A stretch of DNA of 64,000 bases, taken from assembly GCF_044704955.1 (NCBI RefSeq), contig NC_091984.1, positions 146,444,001-146,508,000 of the forward strand, given 5' to 3'. The stretch comes from Pristiophorus japonicus. Lineage: Eukaryota. Of the stretch, positions 1,750-45,500 are shown in pieces. The notes beneath the pieces are model-generated. The model was not told where the DNA came from. It was given only the letters and a program-made list of their open reading frames with translations, and did no database searches. Position 1 is the stretch's first letter; the number at the start of each line of letters is the position of its first letter. The position numbers and the translations under genes are program-made.

Positions 1750-4700
1750 TGGCAGGGGGATGGGAACCAATGCAGGGAGACAGAGGGAAACACAATGGAG
1801 ACAGAAGCAAAAGACAGAAAGGAGATGAGTAAAAGTGGAGGGCAGAGAAACCCAAGGCAAAAAACAAAAAGGGCCACTTTGCAGCAAAATTCTAAAGGGT
1901 CTAAGTGTGTTAAAAAGGCAAACCTGAAGGCTCTGTGCCTCAATGCGAGGAGTATTCGGAATAAGGTGGATGAATTAACTGTGCAGATAGCAGTTAACGG
2001 ATATGATGTGGTTGGCATCACAGAGACATGGCTCCAGGGTGACCAAGGCTGGGAACTCAACATCCAAGGGTAATCAACATTTCGGAACGATAGACAGAAA
2101 GGAAAAGCAGGCGGGGTGGCGTTGCTATTGAGGGAGTGCAGCGAAGGTTCACCAGACTGATTCCCGGGATGGCGGGACTGACCTATCAAGAAAGACTGGA
2201 TCAACTGAGCTTGTATTCACTGGAGTTCAGAAGAATGAGAGGGGACCTCATAGAAACATATAAAATTCTGACGGGGTTAGACAGGTTAGATGCAGTAAGA
2301 ATGTTCCCAATGTTGGGGAAGTCCAGAACCAGGGGTCACAGTCTAAGGATCAGGGGTAAGCCATTTAGGACCGAGATGCGGAGGAACTTCTTCACCCAGA
2401 GAGTGGTGAACCTGTGGAATTCTCTACCACAGAAAGTTGTTGAGGCCAATTCACTAAATATATTCAAAAAGGAGTTAGATGAGGTCCTTACTGCTAGGGG
2501 GATCAAGGGGTATGGCGAGAAAGCAGGAATGGGGTACTGAAGTTGAATGTTCAGCCATGAACTCATTGAATGGCGGTGCAGGCTAGAAGGGCCGAATGGC
2601 CTACTCCTGCACCTATTTTCTATGTTTCTATGTTTCTATGTAAAGAGGAAATTAATGCAATTGTAAGGAAAGACATTAGCTTGGATGATGTGGAATCGGT
2701 ATGGGTGGAGCTACGGAACACCAAGGGGCAGAAAACGCTAATGGGAGTTGTGTACAGACCTCCAAACAGTAGTAGTGATGTTGGGGAGGGCATCAAACAG
2801 GAAATTAGGGGTGCATGCAATAAAGGTGCTGCAGTTATCATGGGTGACTTTAATATGCATATAGATTGGGCCAACCAAACTGGAAGCAATACGGTGGAGG
2901 AGGATTTCCTGGAGTGCATAAGGGATGGTTTTCTAGACCAATATGTTGAGGAACCAACTAGGAGGGTGGCCATCTTAGACTGGGTGTTGTGCAATGAGAG
3001 AGGATTAATTAGCAATCTCGTTGTGCGAGGCCCCTTGGGGAAGAGTGACCATAATATGGTGGAATTCTGCATTAGGATGGAGAATGAAACAGTTAATTCA
3101 GAGACCATGGACCAGGACTTATAGAACGGTTACTTTGAAGGTATGAGGCATGAATTGGCTAGGATAGATTGGTGAATGATACTTAATGGGTTGACAGTGG
3201 AGGGGCAATGGCAGACATTTAGAGACCGCGTGGATGAACTACAACAATTGTACATCCCTGTCTGGCGTAAAAATAAAAAAGGGAAGGTGGCTCAACCGTG
3301 GCTATCAAGGGAAATTAGGGATAATATTAAAGCCAAGGAAGTGGCATACAAATTGGCCAGAAATAGCAGCGAACCCGGGGACTGGGAGAAATGTAGAACT
3401 CAGCAAAGGAGGACAAAGGTTTTGATTAGGGCAGGGAAAAGAGAGCACGAGAGGAAGCTTGCAGGGAACATTAAAATGGACTGCAAAAGCTTCTATACAT
3501 ATGTAAAGAGAAAAAGGTTAGTAAAGGCAAATGTAGGTCCCCTGCAGTCAGAATCAGGGGAAGTCATATCTGGGAACAAAGAAATGGCAGACCAATTGAA
3601 CAAGTATTTTGGTTCGGTATTCACTAGGAAGGACACAAACAATCTTCCGGATATAAAAGGGGTCAGCGGGTCGAGTAAGAAGGAGGAACTGAGGGAAATC
3701 CTTATTAGTCGGGAAATTGTGTTGGGGAAATTGATGGGATTGAAGGCCGATAAATCCCCAGGGCCTGATGGTCTGCATCCCAGAGTACTTAAGGAGATGG
3801 CCTTGGAAATAGTGGATGCATTGACAGTCATTTTCCAACATTCCATAGACTCTGGATCAGGTCCTATGGAGTGGAGGGTAGCCAATGTAACCCCACTTTT
3901 TAAAAAAGGAGGGAGAGAGAAAACAGTGAATTATAGACCGGTCAGCCTGACATCGATAGTGGGTAAAATGATGGAATCAATTCTAAAGGATGTCATAGCA
4001 GCGCATTTGGAAAGAGGCGACATGATAGGTCCAAGTCAGCATGGATTTGTGAAAGGGAAATCATGCTTGACAAATCTGGAATTTTTTGAGGATGTTTCCA
4101 GTAGAGTGGACAAGGGAGAACCAGTTGATGTGGTGTATTTGGACTTTCAGAAGGCTTTCGACAAGGTCCCACACAAGAGATTAGTGTGCAAAGTTAAAGC
4201 ACATGGGATTGGGGGTAGTGTGCTGACGTGGATTGAGAACTGGTTGTCAGACAGGAAGCAAAGAGTAGGAGTAAATGGGTACTTTGCAGAATGGCAGGCA
4301 GTGACTAGTGGGGTACCGCAAGATTTTGTGCTGGGGTCCCAGCTGTTTACATTGTACATTAATGATTTAGACGAGGGGATTAAATATAGTATCTCCAAAT
4401 TTGCAGATGACACTAAGTTGGGTGGCAGTGTGATCTGCAAGGAGGATGCTATGAGGCTGCAGAGTGACTTGGATAGGTTAGGTGAGTGGGCAAATGCATG
4501 GTAGATGAAGTATAATGTGGATAAATGTGGGGTTATCCACTTTGGTGGTAAAAACAGAGAGACAGACTATTATCTGAATGATGACAGATTAGGAAAAGGG
4601 GAGGTGCAACGAGACCTGGGTGTCATGGTACATCAGTCATTGAAGGTTGGCATGCAGGTACAGCAGGTGGTTAAGAAAGCAAATGGCATGTTGGCCTTCA

Positions 4701-5238
4701 TAGTGAGGGGATTTGAGCACAGGGGCAGGGAGGTGTTACTACAGTTGTAAAGGGCCTTGGTGAGGCCACACCTGGAGTATTGTGTACAGTTTTGGTCTCC
4801 TAACTTGATGAAGGACGTTGTTGCTATTGAGGGAGTGCAGCGAAGGTTCACCAGACTGATTCCCGGGATGGCGGGACTGACATATCAAGAAAGACTGGAT
4901 CAACTGGGCTTGTATTCGCTGGAGTTCAGAAGAATGAGAGGCGATCTCATGGAAATGTTCAAAATTCTGACGGGTTTAAACAGGTTAGATGCAGGAAGAA
5001 TGTTCCCAATGTTGGGGAAGTCCAGAACCAGGGGTCACAGTCTAAGGATAAGTGGTAAGCCATTTAGGACCGAGATGAGGAGAAACTTCTTCACCCAGAG
5101 AGTGGTGAAACTGTGGAATTCTCTACCACAGAAAGTTGTTGAGGCCATTTCACTAAATATATTCAAAAAGGAGTTAGATATAGTCCTTACGACTAGGGGA
5201 ATCAAGGGGTATGGTGAGAAAGCAGTAATGGGGTACTG
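1750..5238 (+). pseudogene. CR1 ORF2 (endonuclease-reverse transcriptase) with stops and a nested insertion
   Basis: Collinear fragments 1717-2073, 2641-3124, 3176-4504, 4505-4750 and 4757-5239. Confidence 0.9.
2121..2640 (+). mobile_element. 5'-truncated CR1 3' end nested in the EN domain of a same-family host element
   Basis: Closely matches 4820-5339 and ends in (TTTCTATG)3; the host EN resumes at 2641 (compare the uninterrupted copy at ~44595-44610). Confidence 0.9.
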
Positions 5239-5339
5239 AAGTTGCATGTTCAGCCATGAACTCATTGAATGGCGGTGCAGGCTCGAAGGGCCAAATGGCC
5301 TACTCCTGCACCTATTTTCTATATTTCTATGTTTCTATA

Positions 5340-5863
5340 GCATTATTGTCCCTGGTGCAGGATGGGGGAGAGGTGAGGAACATAACATTATTGGTCCTGG
5401 GGTGTGGGGGGATGGGGGAGAGGAGGGGGCAAGGTGAGGAACATACCATTAATGTCCACAGGGGGAGAGAGGAGGGGGATAGGTGAGTAACATACCATTT
5501 ATTTCACCGTGGGGGGTGAAGAAGAGGTGAGGAACATATCATTAATGTCCCCAGGGGAGGGGGTGGTACGGCATTGGGAGAGGGAGACCGACAGGGAGTA
5601 GTGTGGAACATACCATTATTGTCCCCAGCGGGGGAGAGGTAGAGAGAGAAGTGAGGAACATATCATTATTGTCCACAGAGGGGGAGAGGGGAGGAGAGGT
5701 GAGGAACATACCATTATTGTCCACAGGGGGGGAGAGGAAGTGGAGAGGTGAGGAACATACCATTATTGTCCACAGGGGGGCAGAAGTCGAGAGAGAAGTG
5801 AGGAACATACCATTATTGTCCCCGGGGGGGAGGGGCGGGTCGAGGAGAGGGAGAGGTGAGGAA
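5340..5863. repeat. Continuation of the G-rich minisatellite
   Basis: Repeated GAGGTGAGGAACATACCATTATTGTCC. Confidence 0.9.
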
Positions 5864-5864
5864 T

Positions 5865-6965
5865 GGTAGCACCAGCTTTCTGGCCATTTTTATGAGCAAT
5901 ACTTTAAATCCTTAAATGCAAAAGCCCAAGAAAGAACTGTCCTGTTTGGCGAGCTTGTGGGGGTGGCACTGAGGTGCATTCATATACAACTGGACATTTC
6001 ACACTGACAGGCTGGGTGGCAGGGAACCCAGGCCCATTGATGTCATCACCATCTAAAGTGATTACTGGGAACAATACCCCGAGAGGTAACTCAGAGACAC
6101 TGTGCCTTCGCATTATTAAAGCACAGTCACCACTCAGTCCCAACCCAAACTGGTGCAAGGCAGGAAATGACCGGCCCATTGTCTTCCAGGAGATAAGCCG
6201 GTTAAGCAAGATCGGTTTGTGATCGAAACCCATTACCTGCTAATGGGGGCCATCAACTCAGGAAACGACAGACATCCAGTAATCAGCACCCATTGTCTCT
6301 CCAGAGGCAAGGCCTGGGAGCGGGAAAACAAAATATCATTTTTCACAAAGATTTCAAAGGCTACGAGGCACTCCAGGCCATGGTGGGGGGCGTCCAGACA
6401 GATCACCGGAGTCAATCCATCGGTCAGTATTGGCGGGAGGAAAGGTGATGGGTTTTGGGGATATAAGGAGCCGCTTTGCAACGGTCTGAAGTTATCTTCA
6501 TTCAATGAAACACCGCTAGATGCTGAACACTGCTCTTCAATCCTCACCAACTGACCTCGACTCAAACTGGAACTTGGATTCTGCATCGGTGGTACGGAAC
6601 CAGGAGCGAGACGTTCAGAAAGAAGCTGCAAGCAAGACAACGGGCAATCCGTGTGAGCATATTGCCTGCACCTACACATCCGCAAGACCACTTAGCTGTG
6701 TGAGGGGGTGATTGTAAGTCCCAACCAAACCCAAGGGGTTTACTGCTGGGGGGTCCTGTGTTAGTTTATTTCACGGGAGGGTTCTTTTATTAATCCATGG
6801 TAACTTAGCACGGCAGGGCTTATTGGACAAGCCAGGGTTGTACTGTTTTGCACTGTTTATGTGTGGTGTTGTTAATCTTATAAAACATAATACGGTTGAG
6901 CCCGAATAATCCCTATCATCCAGAACTTGCATTTTCGGTACGCCCGAGAAAAGCACCTACAGATA
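5865..6965 (+). repeat. 5' LTR
   Basis: Direct repeat of 12405-13504; followed by the PBS. Confidence 0.9.
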
Positions 6966-6966
6966 T

Positions 6967-6984
6967 TGGCGACCGCGGCAGGAC
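6967..6984 (+). promoter_or_regulatory. Primer-binding site complementary to tRNA-Arg(TCG)
   Basis: TGGCGACCGCGGCAGGAC is the reverse complement of ...GTCCTGCCGCGGTCG-CCA, the vertebrate tRNA-Arg(TCG) 3' end as recalled from memory. Confidence 0.85.
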
Positions 6985-7020
6985 GATAAGTTTTGTGTCG
7001 GATCATAGGCAAGACCCGAA

Positions 7021-8647
7021 ATGGAGGATAGGATTTCCTCCGACGTGTTCAATAAGATTAACGTGTCTCAGCCATGGGTGCTGGCGATGCTGTGCTCTGA
7101 GAATCCCCAGGATAGGGATGCAGAGTGGACAGGTAGCAGGGATCACAGCAAATCAAAGGAAAAAGTGATTTGGCTCCTGTGTCTGCAGAAGCAAGTTCAA
7201 CTGTTCAGGAAGCAGGTTGAAAAGCTCGGGAATGAGCTTAAAGGGTCTGAGGATAGGTCACACATGAGGGAGATAGTCGGGAGCAGAGTATTAGAGGAAC
7301 TGCACGGGGAAAGGCAAAAAGACGTGAGCAAGAGGAGACCTCCGTTAACATGGTGGAATATCCACAGTGTCAGGTTACAGAGGCCAAGGTAAATGAACAG
7401 GCCCTACGGGAGGAGAATGTGAGGCTAATAGCGAAAGCTGGCAGCTTGGAGGGTCAGCTAAGGGATATAAAGATAGTTTATAAAGTAGCCAGGAGTAGAG
7501 GCTATGAGGAAACAGATCACGGATCCTGTAAGGAAAGGATCCAAAAATTGAGCCAAGCCTTGTCTGGAGCCAGAGGTTTGGCCTGTTTAATGTCACCGGG
7601 GGAAACCGGGGTAGACTGGGACAAGGAGGGTCAGGAGCCTGATGATAGGGCTCAGGATAGGGAAGTCCGACCGTTGCCGGAAGTACCACCGACACCAATG
7701 TGTCCTCTGCGGCAGCAGAAGTTTGGTCCACCCACACCAAACGGTGAGCAGGACCCACTGCAGAGCGATTACGTGGTCCCGATCACAACCCCTCAGCTGC
7801 AAGTCACGCTAGCAGGGACCCCTCAGTTCACTTTATGGAAGTAGAACAGGTAGGGGGGGGTCAACGGATGTAGTGAGGGCGAGATCAACAGGCTGATTCT
7901 GTCCTCCCTTGATTGGAGATTGTATCAGGGCTTATCCGCACCCACAAAGTGAGTAGAAGGCACCATAGAGGGGCTGAAAGACGAGACCCTGAGGGCCATG
8001 GGGCATACCCAGGGGAGCCTGTTCTTACAGGTAGAACGGTTGAGACAGCTGGCCGGCGAGGCACTAGATGCATTCGCGGACAGGTGATGGCCTGTGTACG
8101 TAAAGTCAACTGGAGGGACGCTCGACTGCACGCAGTTGATAGGGACCCCAGGAATCACTGGCTCAGGGTCCTTGTGGCCAACAGCTTGCCAAGAATCAGG
8201 GCCAGAGCAGAAGTGTGGTTTGACCCCAAGAACCTCGCCAATATGGAGACAGGCATGCTCAGAAAGCTGAGTCCAGCCTTTAAGGCCGATTCCGGGAAAG
8301 AGGTCAAATCAAATGGAAGGATCCACGAAATGAAAGCCAGTGAGGGTAATAGGAAGGAATGGCGACAGGAAGGGGTTAGTACCGACAAGTCCAGGACTTG
8401 TTTCGGGTGTGGGAAGCCGGGACACTGGAGGCGAGGCTGCCCATTCCCAAAAGGTGAAGGGGGCCAGACCGAGGGGGTCCTCCAGTGCAAAAGCCGCGTG
8501 TTACAGAGGGGGAGGGGACGACCAACGAGTCATTCGAGTTTCTGGTGGCTGCCCAACGGAAGGTTATGGGAAGAACAGAGACAAGTTAGATGCTGCTGTG
8601 AGCAGGGAAATACCCATCACACCCACATGCCCCCCACCCTGATTAGA
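7021..8647 (+). pseudogene. gag: gag (coiled-coil N-terminus, one CCHC knuckle), frameshifted
   Basis: ORFs 7021-7392, 7350-7844 and 7913-8662; CFGCGKPGHWRRGC. Confidence 0.8.
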
Positions 8648-8649
8648 AC

Positions 8650-11600
8650 CCGCCCAGCCTGAGTACCTGTGTCCACTCACGTACAATAGTGGGGCAGTCT
8701 CTGGGTAAAGATGTGGATGGAGATGGAGCAGGGGAAATATTTGGTGGGCACCGGGGCTTCCAGCACGGTGGACCATTCAACAAACCCGACCAATTCACCC
8801 TGGTCTAGCAGGGTCCCATTCAGCCTCGTGGGGTTCATGGGGAATGAGCAGGCTGGGGCAATCTCAAAACCCCTGGCCATAGAACTAGGATCTCTCCATA
8901 GCACGTGGGAGTGCGTCCTGATGCAATGGGAACCGTCCGGATCGGGAGTCCTTGGGGCTGACTTTATTTTGGCCCACCGAGTGATTGTGGTTTTAAGGAA
9001 TCACTGCCTATGGGGGGCAGTGGGTTCAGATAAAGCCGGAGGTGACAGTGATCCCAAGAGATGGGGAAGGAAGGGGTAGTGTGGTAGTATGGAGCCCAAG
9101 GGGAATTACGGCCTAGAGCAGCTGGTCTGTAATACCCCGGCCAACTATCCGGCGAACGTGTGGGACAACCTCGCCTCGTTCACCACTCACCAACACGACT
9201 GTGGCAGGGTGACGGGGTAGAAGTCAGGGTACAAGGGGACCCCATGTCACAGCCACAGAAACAGTACAGCTTCCCCAGAGAGGCAGAAGCCGACTTGGAG
9301 ACGGCACTGGGATCCCTGGTGGAACAGGAGGTGTTGAGGCCGATAGCCAGCCAGGTAAACTCACCACTTTGGCCGGTTACGTAGCCCGACCAGTCGTGGA
9401 GAACCACCGTGGACTATTGGGTGCTCAATAAAAATATCCCAGCCTGCTCCCACAGTCGCGGCTGTTGCTGACCTCAGAGGGAGCATTCCAGCGGCCGCAA
9501 CCACTGTCACAGTGCTGGATATTTTCATTGGGTTCTGCTCCATTCTCCTTAAACGGGAAGACCTGTACAAGTTTACCTTTACATTTAAAGGGAAGCAGTA
9601 CACCTGGACATGCCTTCCCCAGGGGTCCCACAACAGCCCCTCCATATTCCACCAGTGTATGGCAGATGCACTCAAAGGCTTCAGCCGACCCCAGCAGCTA
9701 ATCCAGTATGTGGACGACTTGCTTTTGTTCTCCGTGGAGCGGGAGGAGCACAGGCCACTGCTGGATGAGCTGTTGAGGCTGTTGCGGGAGACAGGGTTTA
9801 AAGTGAACCCAAAGAAAGCCAGATCGGCCGGGAGGAAGTCAAATCCCTCGGGCTGACCGTAAGGGCTGGTGAGCGAGCGATCGATGAGGCAAAGAGGAAG
9901 GCAGTACAGGAGTTACCCGCCCCCAAGGATGTAACCGGGGTAAGATCCTTCCTGGGACTGACAGGGTAATGCCGGGACTTTATAGAGGGGTACGTCGCCA
10001 CGGCAGCCCCTCTGCTTCGGCTCCTCCGCAAGGGAGTCGGGTGGGAGTGGGACCAGAACTGTCAGGAAACGTTCAGCCGCCTCAAGGAGAATTTACAGAT
10101 GGCGCCCGCACTGGGAGCCATTAACAGGATTGAGGAATTCTTTCTGGAGGTAGCAGCCAGCGGGGACAGCTTGAGCGCGGTGTTGCTCCAGGAGCGGAAC
10201 GGCAAGCTCGACCCGTGGTCTACTCCTCAAGGGTTCTCACTGAAGTAGAACAGGGATACTCTAACTGTGAGAGGCATCTCCTAGCCACGCACTGGGCCGT
10301 AAAGTGCTCCCAACTCTTTATAGGATCATCCCTGATCGTTCTACTGACCCAACACACCCCCAGCCAGATGTTGTTAGACGGGAGGATAAAGGATAGGACA
10401 GTAAGCCGTGCCTGCATTGCCCGCTGGACTTTATTGCTCTCGCAGATGAATCTGAGAGTGCAGAGGTTGACCGAGCCAAAGCTGGCTGTGAATTTCATCT
10501 ACCCAGGGACGGCCCATGCATGTACTGTGGAAGAGGTGTGGGACGTAGATGTGGGATTCCGGGCCAGGATACACCCGACAGGCCGGGAGATCTACATAGA
10601 CGGGTCCAGTTCGGAGGTGAATGGGAAGCGTCTCACTGGGTGTGGGATTTATGACCCCACAGCTAAGGTAGCGAGAGCCATTAAACTCCCCAGCACCCTG
10701 AGCGCTCAGCACGTCAAACTGTCGGTGGTGGAGTACGTGGTTATCCATCCCATCGAGTTCCCCACCCCCTATACCATCTGTTGGGATTCCATGTTCACCT
10801 GTAATTCGTGCAATGAGTACTTGGCCATCTGGGCCTGGCGCGACTTCAAGTCTGTAGACGGGAAGCCCCTAGCAACAGCACCGTTGCTAGGGGGAATGTT
10901 GGAGGTTACGGGCACCCGGGGAGATTACTACACACACAAGGTTAAAGCCCAATTCAAAGACAGAGCCCAAGGAGGAGGACAACCAAAGGGCAGACGAGCT
11001 GGCCAATCAGGGAGCCAGGGAAGGGGTATTCTGGGTTCCGTACAGAGCAGGTCCAGTAGCAGCAATCCGGGACAAGGGAGGCACACAGCGGGTAGCTTTG
11101 GCCCCGCACTTAAAGCAAGTCCAAGCACAGTATCCCATCCTTGTACAAAGGGGGAACGGCAAACCGGTAGAGGGTCCCAACAAGTATGGCTTAGTCCTGG
11201 TGGACGGATTCTCCCAGTGGGTGAAGGCCTTCCCATGCCGAGCAGCCACGGCACTAGCAACAGCAAGGATCCTGGTGAGGGAAGTGTTCTCCCGATGGGG
11301 ACTGCCACAGGTCGTGGAGTCTGACCAAGGGAGCCATTTCACGGGTCAGGTGATGCAGGCCACCTTCAAACATCTGGGAATACAAGGGAAGTGGCATGTG
11401 GCTCACAACCCCCAATCATTGGGGATTGTGGAGCACATGGACCGGACACTGAAAGAAAGACTGAGGAAGGAGATAGTGCCGTTCCCAAAGAGATGGGACG
11501 AGGTCCTGCCATTGGCATTAATGGGTGTCCGGGCCAGCCCCTCCAGAAGCACAGGGTACTCCCCACATGAGGTCATCACCGGGAGGGTTATGTGCACCCA

Positions 11601-12159
11601 ACCCATGTGTTGGTGCCGGTCCTCACAGAAGCTCAGGTCAGGGAGGTAAACCGGGACTGGTTTGTCCAGAATCTGTTTGAGGTTTTAAAACAGATTCACT
11701 GGCAGGCAGCCAGTAACCTGGGGAGCCAGCACCGGGAAACATCGGTTGCTGCTCGAGTCCCGGAGAAGCCACGAGTGGAAAGTGGGAGACCAGGTAATGT
11801 TCAGGAACTGTGCCCGAGTGGGGGCATTCGAGCCACTGTACCTGGGGCCTTGTAACATCGTAGATAAGGCCAGCCCCATGGTATATGCAGTCAGACTCCG
11901 GAAACGCACAAAATGCTGTCACATCAACCAGTGTAAGTTGTTTAACCCCGAGGGGGGGAAGACAAAGGCAAAGAGAAACCAGGGCATGATAATGAGCCTG
12001 GTGGACACGGGTCTTCCTCCCGTGGTGTGGGACGATGATGATGACCCAGAGGGCGGGGCAGTAAGGAGAAACAGTCAGATACCACGGCATAGGGCGCCGT
12101 GGACGCCTCCTTACTCACGGGCCATGAGCCGCAAGAGGCCCCAACAGGAGAGATTTTAA
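8650..12159 (+). pseudogene. pol: pol: protease, RT, degenerate RNase H tether, second RNase H, integrase (N-terminal HHCC region apparently deleted)
   Basis: YLVGTGAS (DTG mutated); QYTWTCLPQGSHNSP; QYVDD; SRVLTEVEQGYSNCERHLLA; IYIDGSS; VLVDGFSQW..SDQGSHF..GIVE; LYLGP. Confidence 0.9.
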
Positions 12160-12404
12160 CCGGGGGCACTCGATAACGCAGAACGAACGGTATATATATG
12201 TAAATAACGAAAGCCCGACCTGTGGAGGGAAAAAGCGCTCACTCACAGGTGGTGCTGTATCTTTTTGTCTTAATCAGGAAATCAGAAGAAACGGGAGCCC
12301 GGGTGTAATTGATCAGTAATGGACCCACAATGCACCTCCCGCAGCAGAAGACGACGGAATTCGAGATATTTCTGGTTTTGGTGACAAAATATCATCAGGG
12401 GGAT

Positions 12405-13504
12405 TGTAGCACCAGCTTTCTGGCCATTTCTATCAACAAAACTTTAAACCCTTAAATCCAAATCCCCAAGAAAGAACTGTCCTGTTTGGCGAGCTTGTGG
12501 GGATGGCACTGAGGTGCATTCATATACAACCGGACATTTCACACTGACAGGCTGGGTGGCAGGGAACCCAGGCCCATTGATGTCATCACCATCTAAAGTG
12601 ATTCCTGGGAACAATATCCCGAGAGGTAACTCAGAGACACTGTACCTTTGCATTGTTAAAGCACAGTCACCACTCAGTCCCAACCCAAACTGGTGCAGGA
12701 CAGGAAATGGCCGGCCCATTGTCTTCCAGGAGATAAGCCGGTTAAGTAAGATCGGTTTGTGATCGAAACCCATTACCTGATAATGGGGGCCATCAACTCA
12801 GGAAACGACAGACATCCAGTAATCAGCACCCATTGTCTCTCCAGACACAAGGCCTGGGAGCGGGAAAACAAAATATCATCTTTCACAAAGATTTCAAAGG
12901 CTATGAGGGGTGGGGAGATTGTCCAGACAGATTACCGGAGTCAATCCATCGGTCAGTATTGGCGGGAGGAAAGGTGATGGGTTTTGGGGATATAAGGAGC
13001 CACTTTGCAACAAGCTCCAGTTCAGGAGGAAGAAAGCTCCGGAAAAAGCCCAGGACAAAGCTCAGGAAAACCCAGGAAAAATCCCAGGAAAAAGCTCAGG
13101 AGCGAGACGTTCAGGAAGAAGCTGCAAGCAAGACAACGTGCAATCAGGGTGAGCATATTGCCTGCACCTACACATCCACAAGACCACTTAGCTGTGTGAG
13201 GGGGTGATTGTAAGTCCCAACCAAACCCAAGGGGTTTAGTGCTGGGGGGGTCCTGTGTTAGTTTATTTCACGGGAGGGTTCATTTATTAAGCCGTGGTAA
13301 CTTAGCATGGCAGGGCTAATTGGACAAGCCAGGGTTGTACTGTTTTGCACTGTTTATGAGTGGTGTTGTTAATCTTATTGAACACAAAACGGTTGAGCCC
13401 GAAAAATGTATGTCCGAGTCTGATCTGTCCATATAATCCCAATCGTCCAGAACTTGTAGTAGGAAGTGCGTTTTCGTTACGCCCGAGAAAACCACCGACA
13501 GACA
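12405..13504 (+). repeat. 3' LTR
   Basis: Starts TGTAGC after AGGGGGAT and ends ...GACA; direct repeat of the 5' LTR. Confidence 0.9.
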
Positions 13505-14900
13505 CCTCCTCAGTACTGCCCCTCCAACAGTGCTGTGCTCCCTCAGTACTGCCCCTCCGACAGTGCGGCATTCCCTCAGTACTGTGCCTCTGACGGTGCT
13601 GCACTCCCTCAGTACTGCCCCTCCGACAGTGCGGCATTCCCTCAGTACTGTGCCTCTGACAGTGCTGCACTCCCTCAGTGCTGCCTCTTCACCAGTGCGG
13701 TACTCTCTCAGAACTGCCCCTCCAAAAGTGCAGTACTCCCTTACTACTATCCCTCCGACAATCCAGCACTCCCTCAGTACTGCCCCTCCGACAGTGCGGC
13801 ACTCCCTCAGTACTGCCCCTCCGACAGTGCGGCACTCCCTCAGTACTGCCCTTCCAACAGTGCAGCACTCCCTCAGTACTGCCCCTCCGACAGTGCGGCA
13901 TTCCCTCAGTACTGTGCCTCTGACGGTGCTGCACTCCCTCAGTACTGCCCCTCCGACAGTGCGGCATTCCCTCAGTACTGTGCCTCTGACAGTGCTGCAC
14001 TCCCTCAGTGCTGCCTCTTCACCAGTGCGGTACTCTCTCAGAACTGCCCCTCCAAAAGTGCAGTACTCCCTTACTACTATCCCTCCGACAATCCAGCACT
14101 CCCTCAGTACTGCCACTCCGACAGTGCGGCACTCCCTCAGTACTGCCCCTCCGACAGTGCGGCACTCCCTCAGTACTGCCCTTCCAACAGTGCAGCACTC
14201 CCTCAGTACTGCCCCTCCGACAGTGCGGCATTCCCTCAGTACTGTGCCTCTGACGGTGCTGCACTCCCTCAGTACTGCCCCTCCGACAGTGCGGCATTCC
14301 CTCAGTACTGTGCCTCTGACAGTGCTGCACTCCCTCAGTGCTGCCTCTTCGCCAGTGCGGTACTCTCTCAGAACTGCCCCTCCAAAAGTGCAGTACTCCC
14401 TTACTACTATCCCTCCGACAGTGCAGCACTCGCTCAGTCCTGCCCCTCCAACAGTGCAGCACTCCCTCAATACTGCCCCTCCGCCACTGCGGTACTGTCT
14501 CAGCACTGCCCTTTGATCAGTGCAGCTATCCCATAGTATTACCTCTCCGACAGTGCAGCACTCGCTCAGTACTGCCCCTCCGACAGTGCAGCGCTCCCTC
14601 AGTACTGCCCTCCGGCAGTGCAGCACTCGCTCAGTACTGCCATTCCGACAGTGCAGCAGTTACTCACAACTGCCCCTCCAACAGTGCGGCACTCCATCAA
14701 TACTGCCCCTCTGGCAGTGCAGCACTCCCTCAGTACTACCCCTCTGACAGTGCAGCACTCCCTCAGTACTGCCCATCTGACAGTACGACACTCCCTCAGT
14801 ACTGCCCCTCTGACAGTGTGGTACTCCCTCAGTACTGCCCCTCTGACAGTGCAGCACTCCCTCAGTACTGCCCCTCTGACAGTGCAGCACTCCTTCAGGA
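13505..14900. repeat. 33-bp minisatellite (CCTCCGACAGTGCAGCACTCCCTCAGTACTGCC) with a 330-bp higher-order period
   Basis: Variant monomers recur at 13678, 14008 and 14338; the unit matches an internal segment of the Deu-type SINE (26866-26900, 17810-17842). Confidence 0.92.
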
Positions 14901-16487
14901 CTGCACAGCTGTGTATGTCTTTATTTTACACTCAGGCCCCTGGAGTAGGGCTTGAACCCACGATACAACATTGCATCACTGGATGCCGCACAGTCTGAGC
15001 TGTGAGTCATATCCCGACCTCAGTTGGAACAGCTAACTCAGAACAAACAACAGCAACTTTTATACAGCACCTTTAACACAGTAAAACTTCCCGAGCGCTT
15101 CACAGGAGCGTTATAGAATAAAGATTGACAGCGAGCCACGTAGGGAGACATTGAAAATTGCAGCTCAGTCAAATTGTGAGGGAAATTGGCAGTGCTGCCT
15201 TCATAACAAAAGGGGGCGATGTTGGTTCTGAAAAGACCAAATTTTTGGACAATTTCTGTGTAACTCAATTGATTGGTTTGTAAAACCCGTTTGTTCCAAA
15301 CCTCCAGTCAGGTTTGCAGAATCATTTCCAGTTCCCCACGTGTCATTTGATGGTGGATCTCAGCGTGTATCTCCTCGTCCGCTCGTGAGGCGGTGTCTCA
15401 GACCGATTGGCAGGTCAGCAGCCACTCCGCACTGCAGCGAGCATCGGCAGGTCATTCCACTGTGGAAGGCCTCACCGCAGAGCTCGGTGCACAGGGTATA
15501 TCCACACAGAGACGCTCAGCCGCCAGGTACAGCAGCAACAACCTGCATTGCTACAGCAACTGGAACATTAGAACAACATCCCGAGGCAGCTGACAGAGGC
15601 ATAATCTGGTCAAAGTGGTGCTGAGCCAAAGGGGGAGAGGCTGGGAGAGGGATCAAAACCCTCAGTCACAGATTGGGTTTGAAGGGAGGTCTTAAAAGAG
15701 GAGAGGGGTGGAGTGGCAGAGAGGTTTAGGGAGCAGGGAGTTAGGGCCCAGGCAGCTGAAGGCATGGCCCCCAATGGAGGGGGAAGGGAAGGGGGGAATG
15801 GATAAGAAGCCTGAGACAGATACAGCGGCCCCTGAACACAACAACAACTTGCATTTATATAGCGAGTGTTGTGACAATGACAGACAGTGAGAATATAACC
15901 CAGATAATGTAACACAGTATTTGCAGCACTTGACACTGTGGGGAAAGCTTGCAATTTTAAATCCATGAGCTGTACATAAGCGAGAGCAGGACCTGTTTGT
16001 GGCCGGTGCGGAGATCACCACTTACAGAAGGTAGTTACTGCAGGGAATTCAGGGCCACAGTGACCTCCTGGACTAGTTTCCATCGCCCGGGGGGAGAGCG
16101 GGGGCAGTCGGAGAGGAGTTTCCCAGATTTATTTCCCCCAATGGGTTTTTTACCTGGTTTTTCGCCTCTCCCAGGAGATCAGGTAGTTTTGGGTGGGGTG
16201 GAGAGTCTATACTGTGATACACAAGGTATCACAATTGTGTGGGACGGGCTGGATGGACCACAGGGTCTTTACCTGTCCGTCACTGTCCGTGGGTTTGGGT
16301 TTCAAAAATTTAGAGCTGAATTGGAAAGAAAGACTTGCATTTGTATAGCGCCTTTCACCACCTCAGGACGTCCGAAAGCGCTTTACAGCCAATGAAGTAC
16401 TTTTGAAGTGTGGCGACTGCAGTAATGGAGGAGACACGACAGACAATTTGTGCACAGCAAGCTCCCACATGTGTATGAACAGATAAT

Positions 16488-17654
16488 GGGCCCAAATTGC
16501 ATATCGCCCCGGTTGGGGCAGTAACTTTTCCCATGCCCAAATTGCGCCCCGGAATCGAAATTGGGGTCACGGCCCCTGACAGGTAGTGAAGCGCTGAACT
16601 TCCCCTGGGGTTAGGCTCGGAGCGGGCGAGTGTCAGGCTGCATCATCGCGGCAGCGACCCTGTCACATCAGCACAGAAAGGCCCGACCGGTCAGTCGGCA
16701 AAAACAAATGGCGAGGCACGGCGGCGCATACCTCCCGGCAAGTTTCACCCCGCGAGTGAAGTGCGGCCTGGTTCGTGACCCACAGGCCTGGCGCAGACAC
16801 GGCTCACGGGGAGCGGACTCAGCTCACGGGGAGCGGACACAGCTCACGGGGCACGGACTCGGCTCACGGGGAGCGGACACGGCTCACGGGGAGTGGACAA
16901 GGCTCACGGGGAGCGGACACATTCATGGGCGTGGATACGGGGAGCGGACACGGCTCATGGGGAGTGGACAAGGCTCACGGGGAACGGACACAGCTCACGG
17001 GGAACGGACACAGCTCACGGGGAGCGGACACAGCTCACGGGGAGTGGACCCGGCTCACGGGAAGCGGACACGTTCACGGGCGTGGATACGGGGAGCGGGT
17101 AGCGGACACGGCTCACGGGCGCAGACACAGCTCACGGGGAGCGGACACTGCTCACGGGGCGTGGACACGGCTCACGGGGCAGAGACTCGGCTCACGGGGA
17201 GCGGACACGGCTCACGGGGCACGGACTCGGCTCACGGGGAGTGGACACGGCTCACGGGGCATGGACTCGGCTCACGGGGAGCGGACACGGCTCACGGGGA
17301 ACGGACATGGCTCAGGGGGAACGGACACGGCTCACGGGGAACGGACATGGCTCAGGGGGAACGGACATAGCTCAGGGGGAACGGACACTGCTCACGGGGA
17401 ACGGACACTGCTCACGGGGAACGGACACAGCTCACGGGGAACGGACACAGCTCACGGGGAACGGACACGGCTCAGGGGGAACGGACTCGGCCCATGGGGA
17501 GCGGACGCGACTCACGGGCGCAGCCACGGCTCAGTGGGCGCTATCCATTTCACCCCCTGCACCACCCCACTTCCCGGGGAAGACAATGTCACACCCCGTC
17601 AGCGCCCCCCGGAGGCACTAAATGCAGACACACAGAGGGGAAATTTCGTAAACC
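16488..17654. mobile_element. Non-autonomous DNA transposon (PIF/Harbinger-like MITE) carrying a VNTR
   Basis: Splits the SINE with a 3-bp AAT duplication; GC-rich imperfect termini (GGGCCCAAATT.. / ..AAATTTCGTCCCC in the paralog). Confidence 0.6.
16795..17530. repeat. 20-bp GC-rich VNTR (GGCTCACGGGGAGCGGACAC) x ~36
   Basis: Clear 20-bp periodicity. Confidence 0.92.
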
Positions 17655-29339: not shown

Positions 29340-31882
29340 GCTTGGGAGGGCATCAAACAGGAAATTAGGGGTGCATGCAATAAAGGTGCAGCAGTTATCA
29401 TGGGTGACTTTAATATGCACATAGATTGGGCTAAACAAACTGGAAGCAATACGGTGGAGGAGGATTTCCTGGAGTGCATAAGGGATGGTTTTCTAGACCA
29501 ATATGTTAAGGAACCAACTAGGGGGGAGGCCATCTTAGACTGGGTGTTGTGCAATGAGAGAGGATTAATTAGCAATCTCGTTGTGCGAGGCCCCTTGGGG
29601 AAGAGTGACCATAATATGGTGGAATTCTACATTAGGATAGAGAAAGAAACAGTTAATTCAGAGACCATGGTCCAGAACTTAAAGAAGGGTAACTTTGAAG
29701 GTATGAGGCATGAATTGGCTAGGATAGATTGGCGAATGATACTTAATGGGTTGACAGTGGATGGGCAATGGCAGACATTTAGAGACTGCATGGATGAACT
29801 ACAGCAATTATACATCCCTGTCTGGTGTAAAAATAAAAAAGGGAAGGTGGCTCAAGGGAAATCAAGGATAGTATTAAAGCCAAAGAAGAGGAATACAAAT
29901 TGGCCAGAAATAGCAGCGAACCTAGGGACTGGGAGAAATTTAGAACTCAGCAGAGGAGGACATAGGGTTTGATTAGGGCAGGGAAAATGGAGTACGAGAG
30001 GAAGCTTGCAGGGAACATTAAGACGGATTGCAAAAGCTTCTATTGATATGTAAAGAGAAAAAGGTTAGTCAAGACAAACGTAAGTTCCCTGCAGTCAGAA
30101 TCAGGGGACGTCATAATGGGGAACAAAGAAATGGCAGACAAATTGAACAAGTATTTTGGTTCGTTAATCACTAAGGCGGACACAAACAACCTTCCGGATA
30201 TAAAAGGGGTCAGAGGGTCTAGTAAGAAGGAGGAACTGAGGGAAATCCTTATTAGTCGGGAAATTGTGTTGGGGAAATTGATGGGATTTGAAAGCCGATA
30301 AATCACCAGGGCCTATTGGTCTGCATCCCAGGGTACTTAAGGAGGTGGCCTTGGAAATAGCGGATGCATTGACAGTCATTTTCCAACATTCCATAGAGTC
30401 TGGATCAGTTCCTATGGAGTGGAGGGTAGCCAATGCAACCCCACTTTTTAAAAAAGAAGGGAAAGAGAAAACAGGGAATTATAGATCGGTCAGCCTGGTA
30501 TCGGTAGTGGGTAAAATGATGGAATCAATTCTTAAGGATGTCATAGCAGCGCATTTAGAAAGAGGTGACATGATAGGTCCAAGTCAGCATGGATTTGTGA
30601 AAGGGAAATCATGCTTGACAAAACTTCTGGAATTTTTTTGAGGATGTTTCCAGTAGAGTGGACAAGGAAGAACCAGTTGATGTGGTGTATTTGGACTTTC
30701 AGAAGGCTTTCGACAAGGTCCCACACAAGAGATTAATGTGCAAAGTTAAAGCACATGGGATTGGGGGTAGTGTGCTGACGTGGATTGAGAACGGGTTGTC
30801 AGACAAGAAGCAAAGAGTAGGATTAAATGGGTACTTTTCAGAATGGCAGGCAGTGACTAGTGGGGTACCACAAGGTTCTGTGCTGGGGCCCCAGCTGGTT
30901 ACATTGTACATTAATGATTTATACGAGGGGATTAAATGTAGTATCTCCAAATTTGCGGATGACACTAAGTTGGGTGGCAGTGTGAGCTGCGAGGAGGATG
31001 CTATGAGGCTGCAGAGTGACTTGGATAGGTTTGGTGAATGGGCAAATGCATGGCAGATGAAGTATAATGTGGATAAATGTGAGGTTATCCACTTTGGTGG
31101 TAAAAACAGAGAGACAGACTATTATCTGAATGGTGACAGATTAGGAAAAGGGGAGGTGCAACGAGACCTGGGTGTCATGGTATGTCAGTCATTGAAGGTT
31201 GGCATGCAGGTACAGCAGGCGGTTAAGAAAGCAAATGGCATGTTGGCCTTCATAGAGAGGGAATTTGAGTACAGGGGCAGGGAGGTGTACTACAGTTGTG
31301 CAGGGCCTCTGTGAGGCCACACCTGGAGTATTGTGTACAGTTTTGGTCTCCTGACCTGAGGAAGGACATTGTTGCTATTGAGGGAGTGCAGCGAAGGTTC
31401 ACCAGACTGATTCCCGGGATGGCGGGACTGACATTTCAAGAAAAACTGGATCAACTGGGCTTGTATTCACTGGAGTTCAGAAGAATGAGAGGGAATCTCA
31501 TTGACACGTTTAAAATACTGACGGGTTTAGACAGGTTAGATGCAGGAAGAATGTTCCCAATGTTGGGGAAGTCCAGAACCAGGGGTCACAGTCTAAGGAT
31601 AAGGGGTAAGCCATTTAGGACCGAGATGAGGAGAAACTTCTTCACCCAGAGCGTGGTGAAGCTGTGGAATTCTCTACCACAGAAAGTTGTTGAGGCCAAT
31701 TCACTAAATATATTCAAAAAGGAGTTAGATGTAGTCCTTACTACTAGGCGAATCAAGGGGTATGGCGAGAAAGCAGGAATGGGGTACTGAAGTTGCATGT
31801 TCAGCCATGAACTCATTGAGTGGCGGTGCAGGCTCGAAGGACCGAATGGCCTACTCCTGCATCTATTTTCTATGTTTCTATG
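29340..31882 (+). mobile_element. 5'-truncated CR1 (same subfamily as 291-5339) in the J-C intron
   Basis: EN end + RT + (TTTCTATG)n tail. Confidence 0.93.
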
Positions 31883-32084
31883 AGCCAACCGAGAGGCAAC
31901 CGACGCAACATCGAGGAGTAAAACCGAACCGACCAACAACGTAAAACCCACCCCAGAGGGACCCCGACCTGAAATAATTGCCCCCAGAACCCCGGAGTTG
32001 ATAGGATTGTGAGTGTAGCCCAAACCCCCTCACAGACACAATTTAGGACAGGAATTGGTAAGAAGGTAAAAAAGGATGCAGCAT

Positions 32085-33393
32085 TGATTCATGAAGGGGA
32101 AATCATGTTTGACTAACTTACTGGAATTCTTTGAGGATATAACGAGCATGGTGGATAGAGGTGTACCGATGGATGTGGTGTATTTAGATTTCCAAAAGGC
32201 ATTCGATAAGGTGCTACACAAAAGGTTACTGCAGAAGATAAAGGTACGCGGAGTCAGTGGAAATGTATTGGCATGGATAGAGAATTGGCTGGCTAACAGA
32301 AAGCAGAGAGTCGGGATAAATGGGTCCTTTTCCGGTTGGAAATCAGTGATTAGTGGTGTGCCACAGGGATCAGTGCTGGGACCATAATTGTTTACAATAT
32401 ACATAGATGACCTGGAAGAGGGGACAGAGTGTAGTGCAACAAAATTTTCAGATGACACTAAGATTAGTGGGAAAGCGGGTTGTGTAGAGGACTCAGAGAA
32501 GCTGCAAGGAGATTTGGATAGGTTAAGCGAATGGGCTAAGGTTTGGCAGATGGAATACAATGTCAGAAAGTGTGAGGTCATCCACCTTGGGGAAAAAACA
32601 GTAAAAGGGAATATTATTTGAATGGGGAGAAATTACAACATGCTGCGGTGCAGAGGGACCTGGGGGTCCTTGTGCATGAAACTCTTTTAGTTCCAAAAGG
32701 TTAGTTTGCAGGTGCAGCAGGTAATCAGGAAGGCGAATGGAATGTTGGCCTTCATTGCGAGAGGGATGGAGTACAAAAGCAGGGAGGTCTTGCTGCAACT
32801 GTATAAGGTATTGGTAAGGCTGCACCTGGAGTACTGCGTGCAGTTTTGGTCACCTTACTTGAGGAAGGATATACTAGCTTTGGAAGGGGTACAGAGACGA
32901 TTCACTAGGCTGATTCCAGAAATGAGGGGGTTACCTTATGATGATAGATTGAGTAGACTGGGTCTTTACTCGTTGGAGTTCAGAAGGATGAGGGGGGCTC
33001 TTACAGAAACATTTAAAATCATGAAAGGGATAGACAAGATCGAGGCAGAGAGGTTGTTTCCATTGGTAGGGGAGACTAGAACTAGGGGGCACAGCCACAA
33101 AATACGGAGGAGCCAATTTAAAACCGAGTTGAGAAAGAATTTCTTCTCCCAGAGGGTTGTGAATCTGTGGAATTCTCTGCCCAAGGAAGCAGTTGAGGTT
33201 AGCTCATTGAATGTTTTCAAGTCAAAGATAGATAGATTTTTAACCAATAAGGGAATTAAGGGTTACGGGGAGAGGGCGGGTAAGTGGAGCTGAGTCCACG
33301 ACCAGATCAGCCATGATCTTATTGAATGGCGGAGCAGGCTCGAGGGGCTAGATGGCCTACTCATGTTCCTAATTCTTATGTTCTTATGTTCTT
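32085..33393 (+). mobile_element. 5'-truncated CR1 (different subfamily) in the J-C intron
   Basis: KGKSCLTNLLEFF..FSDD..WNSLP; (TTCTTATG)n tail. Confidence 0.92.
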
Positions 33394-42588: not shown

Positions 42589-45500
42589 TCAGCAGCAGTC
42601 GGGAGCAGCGTCGGAGGTGCGTGGAGAGGCCTATAAAAGGCACAGCAGGGAGTCCGGGGCCCAGCCTCGGGAGCAGTGTCGAGGAGGTCCATTGGTGAGG
42701 CCTATAAAAGGCAGAGCAGGGAGTCCGGGGCCCAGCCTCGGGAGCAGCGTCGAGGAGGTCCATTAGTGAGGCCTATAAAAGGCACAGCAGGGAGTCCGGG
42801 GCCCAGCCTCGGGAGCAGTGTCGAGGAGGTCCGTTGGTGAGGCCTATAAAAGGCACAGCAGGGAGTCCGGGGCCCAGCGTCGGGAGCAGTGTCGAGGAGG
42901 TCCGTTGGTGAGGCCTATAAAAGGCACAGCAGGGAGTCTGGGGCCCAGCCTCGGGAGCAGTGTCGAGGAGGTCCGTTGGTGAGGCCTATAAAAGGCACAG
43001 CAGGGAGTCCGGGGCCCAGCCTCGGGAGCAGTGTCGAGGAGGTCCGTTGGTGAGGCCTATAAAAGGCACAGCAGGGAGTCTGGGGCCCAGCCTCGGGAGC
43101 AGTGTCGAGGAGGTCCGTTGGTGAGGCAAAAAAGAAGTAGAAAGAAACAGAAAGGTGACGTCACAGCCAAGGGGGTAAGTGATTGGCTGGTGATTGGCGA
43201 GTACTTTTTATTTTTTCTCTTCTATAACAGTGAGTAACTTTAGCATTGTTGTTGCCTATCTCAGGGTTAAGTCATGGCAGGACAGTTCGGTCACGTGTTA
43301 TGCTCCTCCTGTACCATGTGGGAACTCAGGGACGACTCCAGTGTCCCTGACGACTACATGTGCGGGAAGTGTATCCGCCTCCAGCTCCTGACGGACCGCG
43401 TTGCGGAGTTGGAGCAGAGGGTGGATTCACTCTGGAGCATCCACGATGCTGAGAATGACGTGAGTAGCACATGTAGCGAGTTGGTTGTACCGCAGGTAAA
43501 GGGTCCACAGCCAGCTTGGGAATGGAAGACCAGCAGGAAGAGCAGAGCAAGGAAGGTAGTGCAGGGGTCTCCTGTGGTCATCCCCCTGCAAAACAGATAC
43601 ACTGCTTTGAGTACTGTTGAGGGGGATGACTCATCAGGGGAGGGCAGCAGCAGCCAAGTTCATGGCACCGTGGCTGGCTCTGTTGCACAGGAGGGCAGGA
43701 AAAAGAGTGGGAGAGCGATAGTGATAGGGGATTCAATTGTCAGGGGAATAGATAGGTGTTTCTGCGGCTGCAACCAAGACTCCAGGATGGTACGTTGCCT
43801 CCCTGGTGCAAGGGTCAAGGATGTCTCGGAGCGGGTGCAGGACATTTTAAAAAGGGAGGAAGAACAGCCAGTTGTCGTGGTGCACATTGGTACCAACGAC
43901 ATCGGTAAAAAAATGGATTAGGACCTACGAAACGAATTTAAGGAGCTACGAGCTAAATTAAAAAGTAGGACCTCAAAAGTAGTAATCTTGGGATTGCTAC
44001 CAGTGCCACGTGCTAGTCAGAGTAGGAATCGCAGGATAGCGCAGATGAATACGTGGCTTGAGCAGTGGTGCAGCAGGGAGGGATTCAAATTCCTGGGGCA
44101 TTGGAACCGGTTCTGGGGCAGGTGGGACCAGTACAAACCGGACGGTCTGCATCTGGGCAGGACCGGAACCAATGTCCTAGGGGGAGTGTTTGCTCGTGCT
44201 GTTGGGAAGGAGTTAAACTAATGTAGCAGGGGGATGGGAACCAATGCAGGGATACAGAGGGAAACAAAAAGGAGACAAAAGCAAAAGACAGAAAGGAGAT
44301 GAGGAAAATTGGAGGGCAGAGAAACTCAAGGCAAAGAACAAAAAGGGTCACTGTACAGCAAAATTCTAAAAGGACAAAGGGTGTTAAAAAAACAAGCCTG
44401 AAGGATTTGTGTCTTAATGCAAGGAGTATCCATAATAAGGTGGATGAATTAACTGTGCAAATAGATGTTAACAAATATGATGTGATTGGGATTACAGTGA
44501 CGTGGCTCCAGGATGATCAGGGCTGGGAACTCAACATCCAGGGGTATTCAACATTCAGGAAGGATAGAATAAAAAGAAAAGGAGGTGGGGTAGCATTGCT
44601 GGTTAAAGAGGAAATTAATGCAATCGTTAGGAAGGACATTAGCTTGGATGATGTGGAATCTATATGGGTAGAGCTGCAGAACACCAAAGGGCAAAAAACG
44701 TTAGTGGGAGTTGTGTACAGACCTCCAAACAGTATAGTGATGTTGGGGAGGGCATCAAACAGGAAATTAGAGGTGCATGCAATAAAGGTGCAGCAGTTAT
44801 AATGGGTGACTTTAATATGCACAGAGATTGGGCTAACCAAACTGGAAGCAATACGGTGGAGGAGGATTTCCTGATGTGCATAAGGGATGGTTTTCGAGAC
44901 CAATATGTCAAGGAACCAACGAGGGGGGAGGCCATCTTAGACTGGGTGTTGTGTAATGAGAGAGGAATAATTAGCAATCTCGTTGTGCGAGGCCCCTTGG
45001 GGAAGAGTGACCATAATATGGTGGAATTCTGCATTAGGATGGAGAATGAAACAGTTAATTCAGAGACCATGGTCCAGAACTTAAAGAAGGGTAACTTTGA
45101 AGGTATGAGGCGTGATTAGGCCAGGATAGATTGGCGAATGATACTTAAGGGGTTGACTGTGGATGGGCAATGGCAGACATTTAGAGACCGCATTGATGAA
45201 CTACAACAATTGTACATTCCTGTCTGGCGTAAAAATAAAAAAGGGAAGGTGGCTCAATCGTGGCTATCAAGGGAAATCAGGGATAATATTAAAGCCAAGG
45301 AAGTGGCATACAAATTGGCCAGAAATAGCAGTGAACCCGGGGACTGGGAGAAATTTAGAACTCAGCAGAGGAGGACAAAGGGTTTGATTAGGGCAGGGAA
45401 AATGGAGTACGAGAAGAAGCTTGCAGGGAACATTAAGACGGATTGCAAAAGTTTTTATAGATATGTAAAGAGAAAAAGGTTAGTAAAGACAAACGTAGGT

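Follow-up and report, generated by a model that had tools for sequence, protein, structure and literature searches.

Snakehead retrovirus (SnRV) is the nearest exogenous virus, by similarity of the reverse transcriptase (RT), to the element described here, which occupies positions 5865-13504 of a 64,000-nt stretch of Pristiophorus japonicus DNA (NC_091984.1, positions 146,444,001 to 146,508,000; the whole stretch is referred to as the window). Lineage I of the elephant-shark endogenous retroviruses (ERVs), CmiERV, has been reported to cluster with SnRV (Han 2015, PMC4422223). In frogs, Silurana is reported to have about nine SnRV-like copies and Pelophylax a complete one that lacks env (Grau et al. 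2014, PMC4131045), and SnRV-like elements are described as the major ERV class of the coelacanth, possibly an ancestral branch (Naville and Volff 2016, PMC4977317). The relatives of SnRV have also been placed in a clade, Huo, together with ERV-L/class III; this clade is present in all major vertebrate lineages (Xu et al. 2018), and a catshark ERV has been described as foamy-like (PMC10699275). Lokiretroviruses and Odin elements share with the present element a dual RNase H and a well-preserved tether, and Odin also lacks env (PMC7947760, PMC9040795). The specific family to which the element belongs was not found described in the literature searched, the scope of which excluded subscription journals, Repbase/Dfam and the supplements of Xu 2018, Grau 2014 and the Odin paper.

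The element is read here as a decayed ERV without env on the canonical-retrovirus side, likely from a deep lineage that it shares with CmiERV lineage I and with ERVs of frogs and the coelacanth; on balance, it is probable that this family lost env and spread inside cells. The window copy itself is a new env-less, decayed member of a deep ERV grade that has already been reported, and it is not a lokiretrovirus, an Odin element or a foamy virus. The env gene of a complete retrovirus is missing, and the element is classed as an env-less ERV. Between its long terminal repeats (LTRs), with a primer-binding site (PBS) and a polypurine tract, the order is protease, RT, tether, RNase H and integrase, as in canonical retrovirus-derived ERVs.

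The placement is based on four RT-based trees, one of 58 rows without foamy viruses, two of RT plus tether (46 and 34 rows) and one of RT alone (34 rows). The long-branched row P0059 and 11 redundant rows were removed before the approximately unbiased (AU) tests, which reduced 46 rows to 34. Lokiretrovirus rows were picked by the match of their signature to rows printed in the lokiretrovirus paper. In all four trees the element is on the canonical-retrovirus side, against lokiretroviruses and Ty3/Gypsy, with branch support of 99-100/98-99, and the Gypsy rows are monophyletic without it, set apart at 100/100 in the 58-row, 46-row and RT-alone trees. The loki-signature rows are monophyletic without the element for RT (100/98-100), RNase H (100/98) and integrase (100/97), and the foamy rows are monophyletic without it in all three RT-based trees that include them. 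The trees of RNase H and of integrase likewise keep the element out of both groups. P0313 and P0137 are absent from the RNase H tree, as the search motif is missing in them; this tree recovers the pairing of lokiretroviruses and foamy viruses of Wang and Han (93/87). A topology that joins the element to the lokiretroviruses is rejected (p-AU 0.005). The element, the frog and coelacanth rows and other close rows form a clade, of seven rows and with support of 95/92 on RT alone, and at 92/89 in the 58-row tree. Membership in Ty3/Gypsy (Metaviridae) was considered and discarded, as the RT falls outside the Gypsy clade and a second RNase H is present.

The tether and the second RNase H do not single out any one group of retroviruses. 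Pfam scans give the same pair in the Pol of SnRV, murine leukemia virus (MLV), walleye epidermal hyperplasia virus 1 (WEHV-1) and foamy viruses (4/4 canonical reference kinds, with foamy viruses represented by two Pol proteins), and therefore the dual RNase H is not diagnostic but the normal retrovirus layout. Wang and Han state that the pair holds for retroviruses generally (PMC7947760). In the window copy, the tether is matched by RT_RNaseH at 41.8 bits and RT_RNaseH_2 at 39 bits. For PF17919, the scores are 73-98 bits in five relatives, 90-96 in two loki-signature proteins, 69 in WEHV-1, 55 in MLV, 46 in SnRV and 33-38 in foamy viruses. The tether is thus as Gypsy-like in score as that of lokiretroviruses, which is why the element looked primitive. 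The closest matches in the Protein Data Bank to the tether and RNase H together are foamy viruses. A first-pass annotation, made from the sequence alone, had taken the tether and acquired RNase H to set the element apart from Gypsy elements, and had proposed a basal position near lokiretroviruses and foamy viruses, to be checked with RT, RNase H and integrase trees. The separation from Ty3/Gypsy and the place on the retrovirus side stand in the trees so built. The pair is common to all the canonical reference kinds, and an affinity to lokiretroviruses or foamy viruses is not supported by RT, RT plus tether, RNase H or integrase.

The closest protein to the element is P0001 (66% identical), followed by frog and coelacanth proteins annotated as NYNRIN-like or Gypsy-integrase-like (GIN1-like). 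These include XP_072255088 of Pyxicephalus, KAM4696090 of Rhinophrynus, A0A803JYW4 of Xenopus tropicalis, XP_073459965 of the bullfrog and P0313 of Latimeria. Their Pol proteins are 42-45% identical to P0001 from RT to RNase H, among the matches listed. They have the same domain order as the element, and many have open pol frames, unlike the window copy. They are probably the 'SnRV-like' ERVs of PMC4131045 and PMC4977317. With the single-frame RT piece of the window as query, six frog, coelacanth and other relatives score 114-128 bits and the rest of the group 43-79, compared to 95 for SnRV, 63 for WEHV-1 and 38-61 for loki-signature proteins; among chains of the Protein Data Bank the scores are 51-57 for foamy viruses, 52 for Ty3 and 45 for MLV. 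In the reciprocal search with SnRV Pol, P0002, P0004, P0005, P0136 and P0313 are within the top 15 of 93 matches. P0159 is identified as SnRV Pol by a match to the row for this virus in the PMC7947760 supplement; at 99%, the protein maps to a viral record (L001) of 10,688 nt, the length given for SnRV (PMC12193657). A search of viral contigs with P0001 found no relative. In two of the frog gene models, P0003 (residues 1214-1291) and P0006 (residues 635-704), pol runs into a weak Ig_3 match (E 0.012 and 0.062), which may be a captured Ig-like gene, a part of an envelope 3' of pol or an artefact of the gene model.

SnRV and the element share the tether plus RNase H and a single CCHC knuckle in Gag (one is reported for SnRV in PMC1224870). 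However, SnRV has env and accessory open reading frames (ORFs), and its Gag resembles that of the window at the knuckle only (E 0.059). The PBS of SnRV is also of the tRNA-Arg type but of a different sequence. The resemblance to CmiERV scaffold 2 (lineage I), translated and read by eye, is in motifs: HKHDCGR upstream of RT, PACAP, LEVA and CERHLLA in the tether, and YIDGSS in the RNase H. One CCHC, TGT...ACA ends of the LTRs, long LTRs and a chondrichthyan host are also in common. In contrast to the element, CmiERV lineage I carries env, with immunosuppressive-domain and CX6CC motifs. Its PBS, which we take to be of the tRNA-Ser type, is unlike that of the window.

Foamy viruses have an A9 protease and no CCHC, and their RT clade excludes the element. 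ERV-L and XtERV-S have YIDD, a dUTPase downstream of integrase and no CCHC, compared to YVDD and a CCHC here. XtERV-S was tried as a frog relative and is ruled out by YIDD, dUTPase and a Ser PBS. TGT...ACA ends, as in the 3' LTR of the element, have been described for class III ERVs (PMC8278194).

The copy at 5865-13504 is dead, with stops, frameshifts and an integrase deletion, and is presumably inert. The frame of pol shifts in about seven places; within RT, the frame changes near 9447 and 9815 and is interrupted by stops at 9382 and 9967. The integrase core (Pfam rve) scores 45.5 bits. It lacks the zinc-binding domain together with the first part of the core, leaving about 120 residues of P0001 without counterpart, and sibling contigs carry other sequence at the site of this deletion. 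The first-pass annotation had overlooked this loss, as well as the lack of a target-site duplication and the unlike LTR block described below. A search of the ESM Atlas with the gag ORF gave only CCHC/Gag leads below 0.9. The motifs noted in the first pass (the YVDD of RT, the degenerate tether, the second RNase H and the integrase) are all present in the reading frames, and the second RNase H has support from hidden Markov models: PF00075 matches at 24.4 bits (E 3.6e-5), just below the cut-off of 25.8, and at 67 bits in P0001. The same acidic catalytic position of this domain (about 10710) is substituted in the window copy and in P0001, for which independent CpG decay is a likely cause, with a shared change as the alternative.

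Table 1. Features of the element in window coordinates.
Feature	Position	Strand	Remarks
5' LTR	5865..6965	+	1101 nt; at either end the trinucleotide differs from TGT...ACA of the 3' LTR; TATA-like box at 6462
5'-LTR block without homology to the matching 3'-LTR block	6483..6599	+	173/500 shuffles score as well
PBS, tRNA-Arg type (mostly TCG among matched tRNAs)	6967..6984	+	18 nt
gag	7021..8642	+	Frame changes and stops; coiled-coil-like N-terminal part predicted; end inferred from reading frames
Single CCHC knuckle of gag	near 8393-8443	+	Pfam zf-CCHC 18.2 bits, under cut-off
Aspartic protease region, decayed	8690..9130	+	From alignment to P0001; no Pfam match
RT and thumb	9133..10060	+	YVDD near 9708; RVT_1 89 bits
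Tether (degenerate Gypsy-type RNase H)	10048..10445	+	PF17919, PF17917; frame change near 10210
Second, acquired RNase H	10587..11020	+	One acidic catalytic position substituted; frame change near 10940
Integrase, internal deletion near 11175	11100..12159	+	Frame changes near 11598 and 11735; C-terminal SH3-like domain
Spacer without env	12160..12404	+	245 nt; polypurine tract at about 12395-12404
3' LTR	12405..13504	+	1100 nt; TGT...ACA ends

The LTRs of about 1.1 kb, the 18-nt PBS matching tRNA-Arg and the interval of about 245 bp between integrase and 3' LTR that the first-pass annotation had given are all borne out (Table 1), the last of these measured from the final stop of the pol frame. 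For the PBS, fifteen of its bases joined to a T-loop motif were searched against metagenome loci, and 18 loci were matched. ARAGORN calls tRNA-Arg in 13/18 of these, which are metagenome and not host tRNAs; the calls are 10 TCG, 2 CCT, 1 ACG, 1 undetermined and 4 without a tRNA. No tRNA gene was found in the 64,000-nt window. Over five aligned segments with 940 positions in total, the two LTRs are identical at 890 (Kimura two-parameter distance 0.055), a count that skips short indel-rich stretches. The block in which they are unlike is located directly downstream of the TATA box, and its partner in the 3' LTR (13012-13095) contains a short tandem repeat. A shared stop-free frame of 104 codons is found near the 5' end of both LTRs (5908-6222 and 12448-12762), with no meaningful Pfam match. 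A hairpin that precedes the polypurine tract does not exceed shuffled sequences in stability (z 0.63, 141/200).

No env was found between pol and the 3' LTR. The Pfam env families, including PF00523, have no match in the 7 ORFs of the spacer and LTRs, and a paramyxovirus-F-like env, as in lokiretroviruses, was not found in these ORFs either. The best match to SnRV env by tblastn has an E value of 1.2, and the best to 41 viral loci by tblastx 0.30. A pyrimidine tract ending in AG is located just past pol (12260-12280, AG near 12279). It resembles the tract that precedes env in CmiERV scaffold 2 and may be a vestigial splice acceptor for env. In the first pass it was proposed that env had been lost or had never been present. 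Its absence is confirmed; however, as CmiERV lineage I (read by eye), the nearest relative so far described from a cartilaginous fish, has env, loss is likelier than primitive absence.

Contigs of sequencing runs, aligned at 82% likeness, give a view of the sibling copies. The four runs (X1, X2, X5 and X6) represent three organisms; X1 and X2 are from one sample, possibly the source of the window DNA. Element bins are covered at 30/30 in X1, X2 and X5 and at 29/30 in X6, such that contigs of the two other organisms cover 30/30 and 29/30 bins. Sibling contigs span 11924-12242 (about 87% identity) and 11872-12152, with small gaps only. The bin 12001-12287 is covered in all four runs, at a depth (not to be read as copy number) within the range of the other internal bins. 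The siblings therefore share the short spacer over at least a part of its length. None of the sequencing runs listed is an RNA run with the element, which has no bearing on expression.

These observations suggest a history in which an env-bearing ancestor would have entered the germ line, the lineage would have lost env, and the family would then have spread by intracellular retrotransposition in germ cells. Both the loss and this mode of spread are deduced from the relative that has env and from the short spacer in common with siblings. ERVs without env are known to reach high copy numbers. In such a cycle, tRNA-Arg would prime reverse transcription at the PBS, RT would work with the tether as a structural linker, the acquired RNase H would remove the RNA template, the polypurine tract would prime the plus strand and integrase would insert the DNA; these roles are established in retrovirology.

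Several points weigh against this reading. With the tether added, the clade with frogs and the coelacanth has unstarred support of 83/86 in the 34-row tree and is not resolved in the 46-row tree. An exclusive clade of the element and SnRV is rejected (p-AU 0.033 for RT plus tether, 0.019 for RT), as is a wider SnRV-like clade of 14 rows (p-AU 0.009). As a result, 'SnRV-like' denotes a grade in these trees. References for ERV-L, class II, the fish foamy-like ERV and Odin are absent from the trees. CmiERV-I is likewise outside them, and its link to the element is by motifs read by eye rather than by a tree. P0059, the one long-branch YIDD proxy for ERV-L/class III, changed position among the trees. 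Moreover, no contig among those listed bridges the end of integrase to the polypurine tract, and loss of env across the family is therefore suggested at most.

The same lineage could have lost env only in the window copy or in a small sub-branch, the family having spread mainly by reinfection. This is rather unlikely, and it draws on the env of CmiERV lineage I, on the acceptor-like tract after pol and on the integrase deletion, which looks private to this copy, since sibling contigs have other sequence beyond 11173 or leading into 11198. On the other hand, the siblings across 11924-12242 and the ordinary depth of bin 12001-12287 in all four runs indicate a spacer shared at least in part, and among the loose ends listed none lies between 12160 and 12404.

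The position of the lineage relative to foamy viruses leads to two further readings. A group of foamy viruses, SnRV and class I that excludes the lineage is found at 83/68 in the 46-row tree, 89/92 in the 34-row tree and 92/90 on RT alone, and a topology with foamy viruses first comes close to being rejected on RT alone (p-AU 0.052). For the second RNase H, the element is joined with SnRV, foamy viruses and lokiretroviruses against class I (95/89), and the tether scores of the five relatives are like those of lokiretroviruses and above those of WEHV-1, MLV, SnRV and foamy viruses. The lineage, known from chondrichthyans, frogs and the coelacanth and having the least eroded canonical tether sampled, might then be the earliest canonical branch, predating the divergence of foamy viruses and separate from SnRV, an unnamed major clade bridging loki/Odin and the other retroviruses with env in some members only. 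We regard this as unlikely. That the env-less state of such an earliest, pre-foamy branch is itself primitive, making it an Odin-like intermediate in vertebrates, is less probable still, as the env-bearing relative would require an independent gain of env. For the early branching as such, none of the supporting branches is starred, and the textbook topology with foamy viruses first is not rejected (p-AU 0.167 in a further test besides that on RT alone). Without foamy viruses, the base of the 58-row tree is a polytomy that includes SnRV. The foamy branch is long (1.0-1.8), and fast-evolving lineages may be drawn together, with slow ones left in a basal position. Together with the missing references, this makes long-branch attraction a ready explanation of the basal placement. 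P0304, a protein placed with the foamy viruses on RT (97/94), has a weak match to the A9 protease (E 0.0009) and a well-preserved tether (79 bits), and is possibly a short-branched foamy relative.

The ends of the element allow for an assembly chimera, in which two family members were joined between satellites; this would bear on the ends and not on the placement of the family. No target-site duplication was found in any of 9 combinations of ends and lengths, the flanks are two different minisatellites (49-nt and 33-nt units), the LTRs contain the unlike block, and no listed contig spans the whole stretch. These features suggest that the ends derive from recombination between two insertions or from misassembly. 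However, in contigs of the best-covered sample the left satellite is continuous with sequence directly preceding the 5' LTR (joint at 5771-5853), and ectopic recombination between proviral LTRs, an established mechanism, yields the same picture, which leaves a chimera improbable. With no target-site duplication and with the unlike block, the LTRs are perhaps from different integrations, so that their distance is unusable as an age, and LTR dating was dropped.

Finally, it is very improbable that the element belongs to the lokiretroviruses or is of the Odin type, which would make it the first of these in a cartilaginous fish. A dual RNase H without env fits the description of Odin (PMC9040795), three of the four loki-signature proteins match the integrase core at 104-128 bits (the fourth at 5, SnRV at 69) and the tether score is loki-like, but the lokiretroviruses exclude the element in the trees of all three domains, a position as their sister is rejected by the AU test above (with no Odin sequence in the tree), its RT has LPQG where the published loki rows compared have PFG, and lokiretroviruses carry an F-like env. 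Five chondrichthyan genomes and Pyxicephalus stand without an asterisk in Table S2 of PMC7947760, where we read the asterisk as 'loki found'.

The remainder of the window is dominated by minisatellites and by fragments of long interspersed nuclear elements (2100-5330, 29340-33250, 44600-47150 and others; mutual identity up to 94%), which we take to be CR1-like. A 2-kb sequence is present twice in inverted orientation, at 14883-16874 and 61995-64000, with 92% identity and 45 kb apart. A second retroelement fragment at 56804-57214, with about 30% identity to several Gypsy-type polyproteins, adjoins an open frame of 469 codons (57115-58521). No host gene is evident in the 64,000-nt window.

Taken alone, the locus is of minor importance, being a dead provirus from a grade that was already reported in cartilaginous fish and of which a frog has env-less members. 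What makes it useful is that it samples a deep, slowly evolving lineage of retroviruses, one that is mislabelled as NYNRIN-like or Gypsy-integrase-like in databases. If this lineage predates foamy viruses, the root of the canonical retroviruses and the order in which env and RNase H were acquired would change, and its Pol, which evolves slowly and has kept its tether well, would be well suited as a model of the transition from Gypsy elements to retroviruses.

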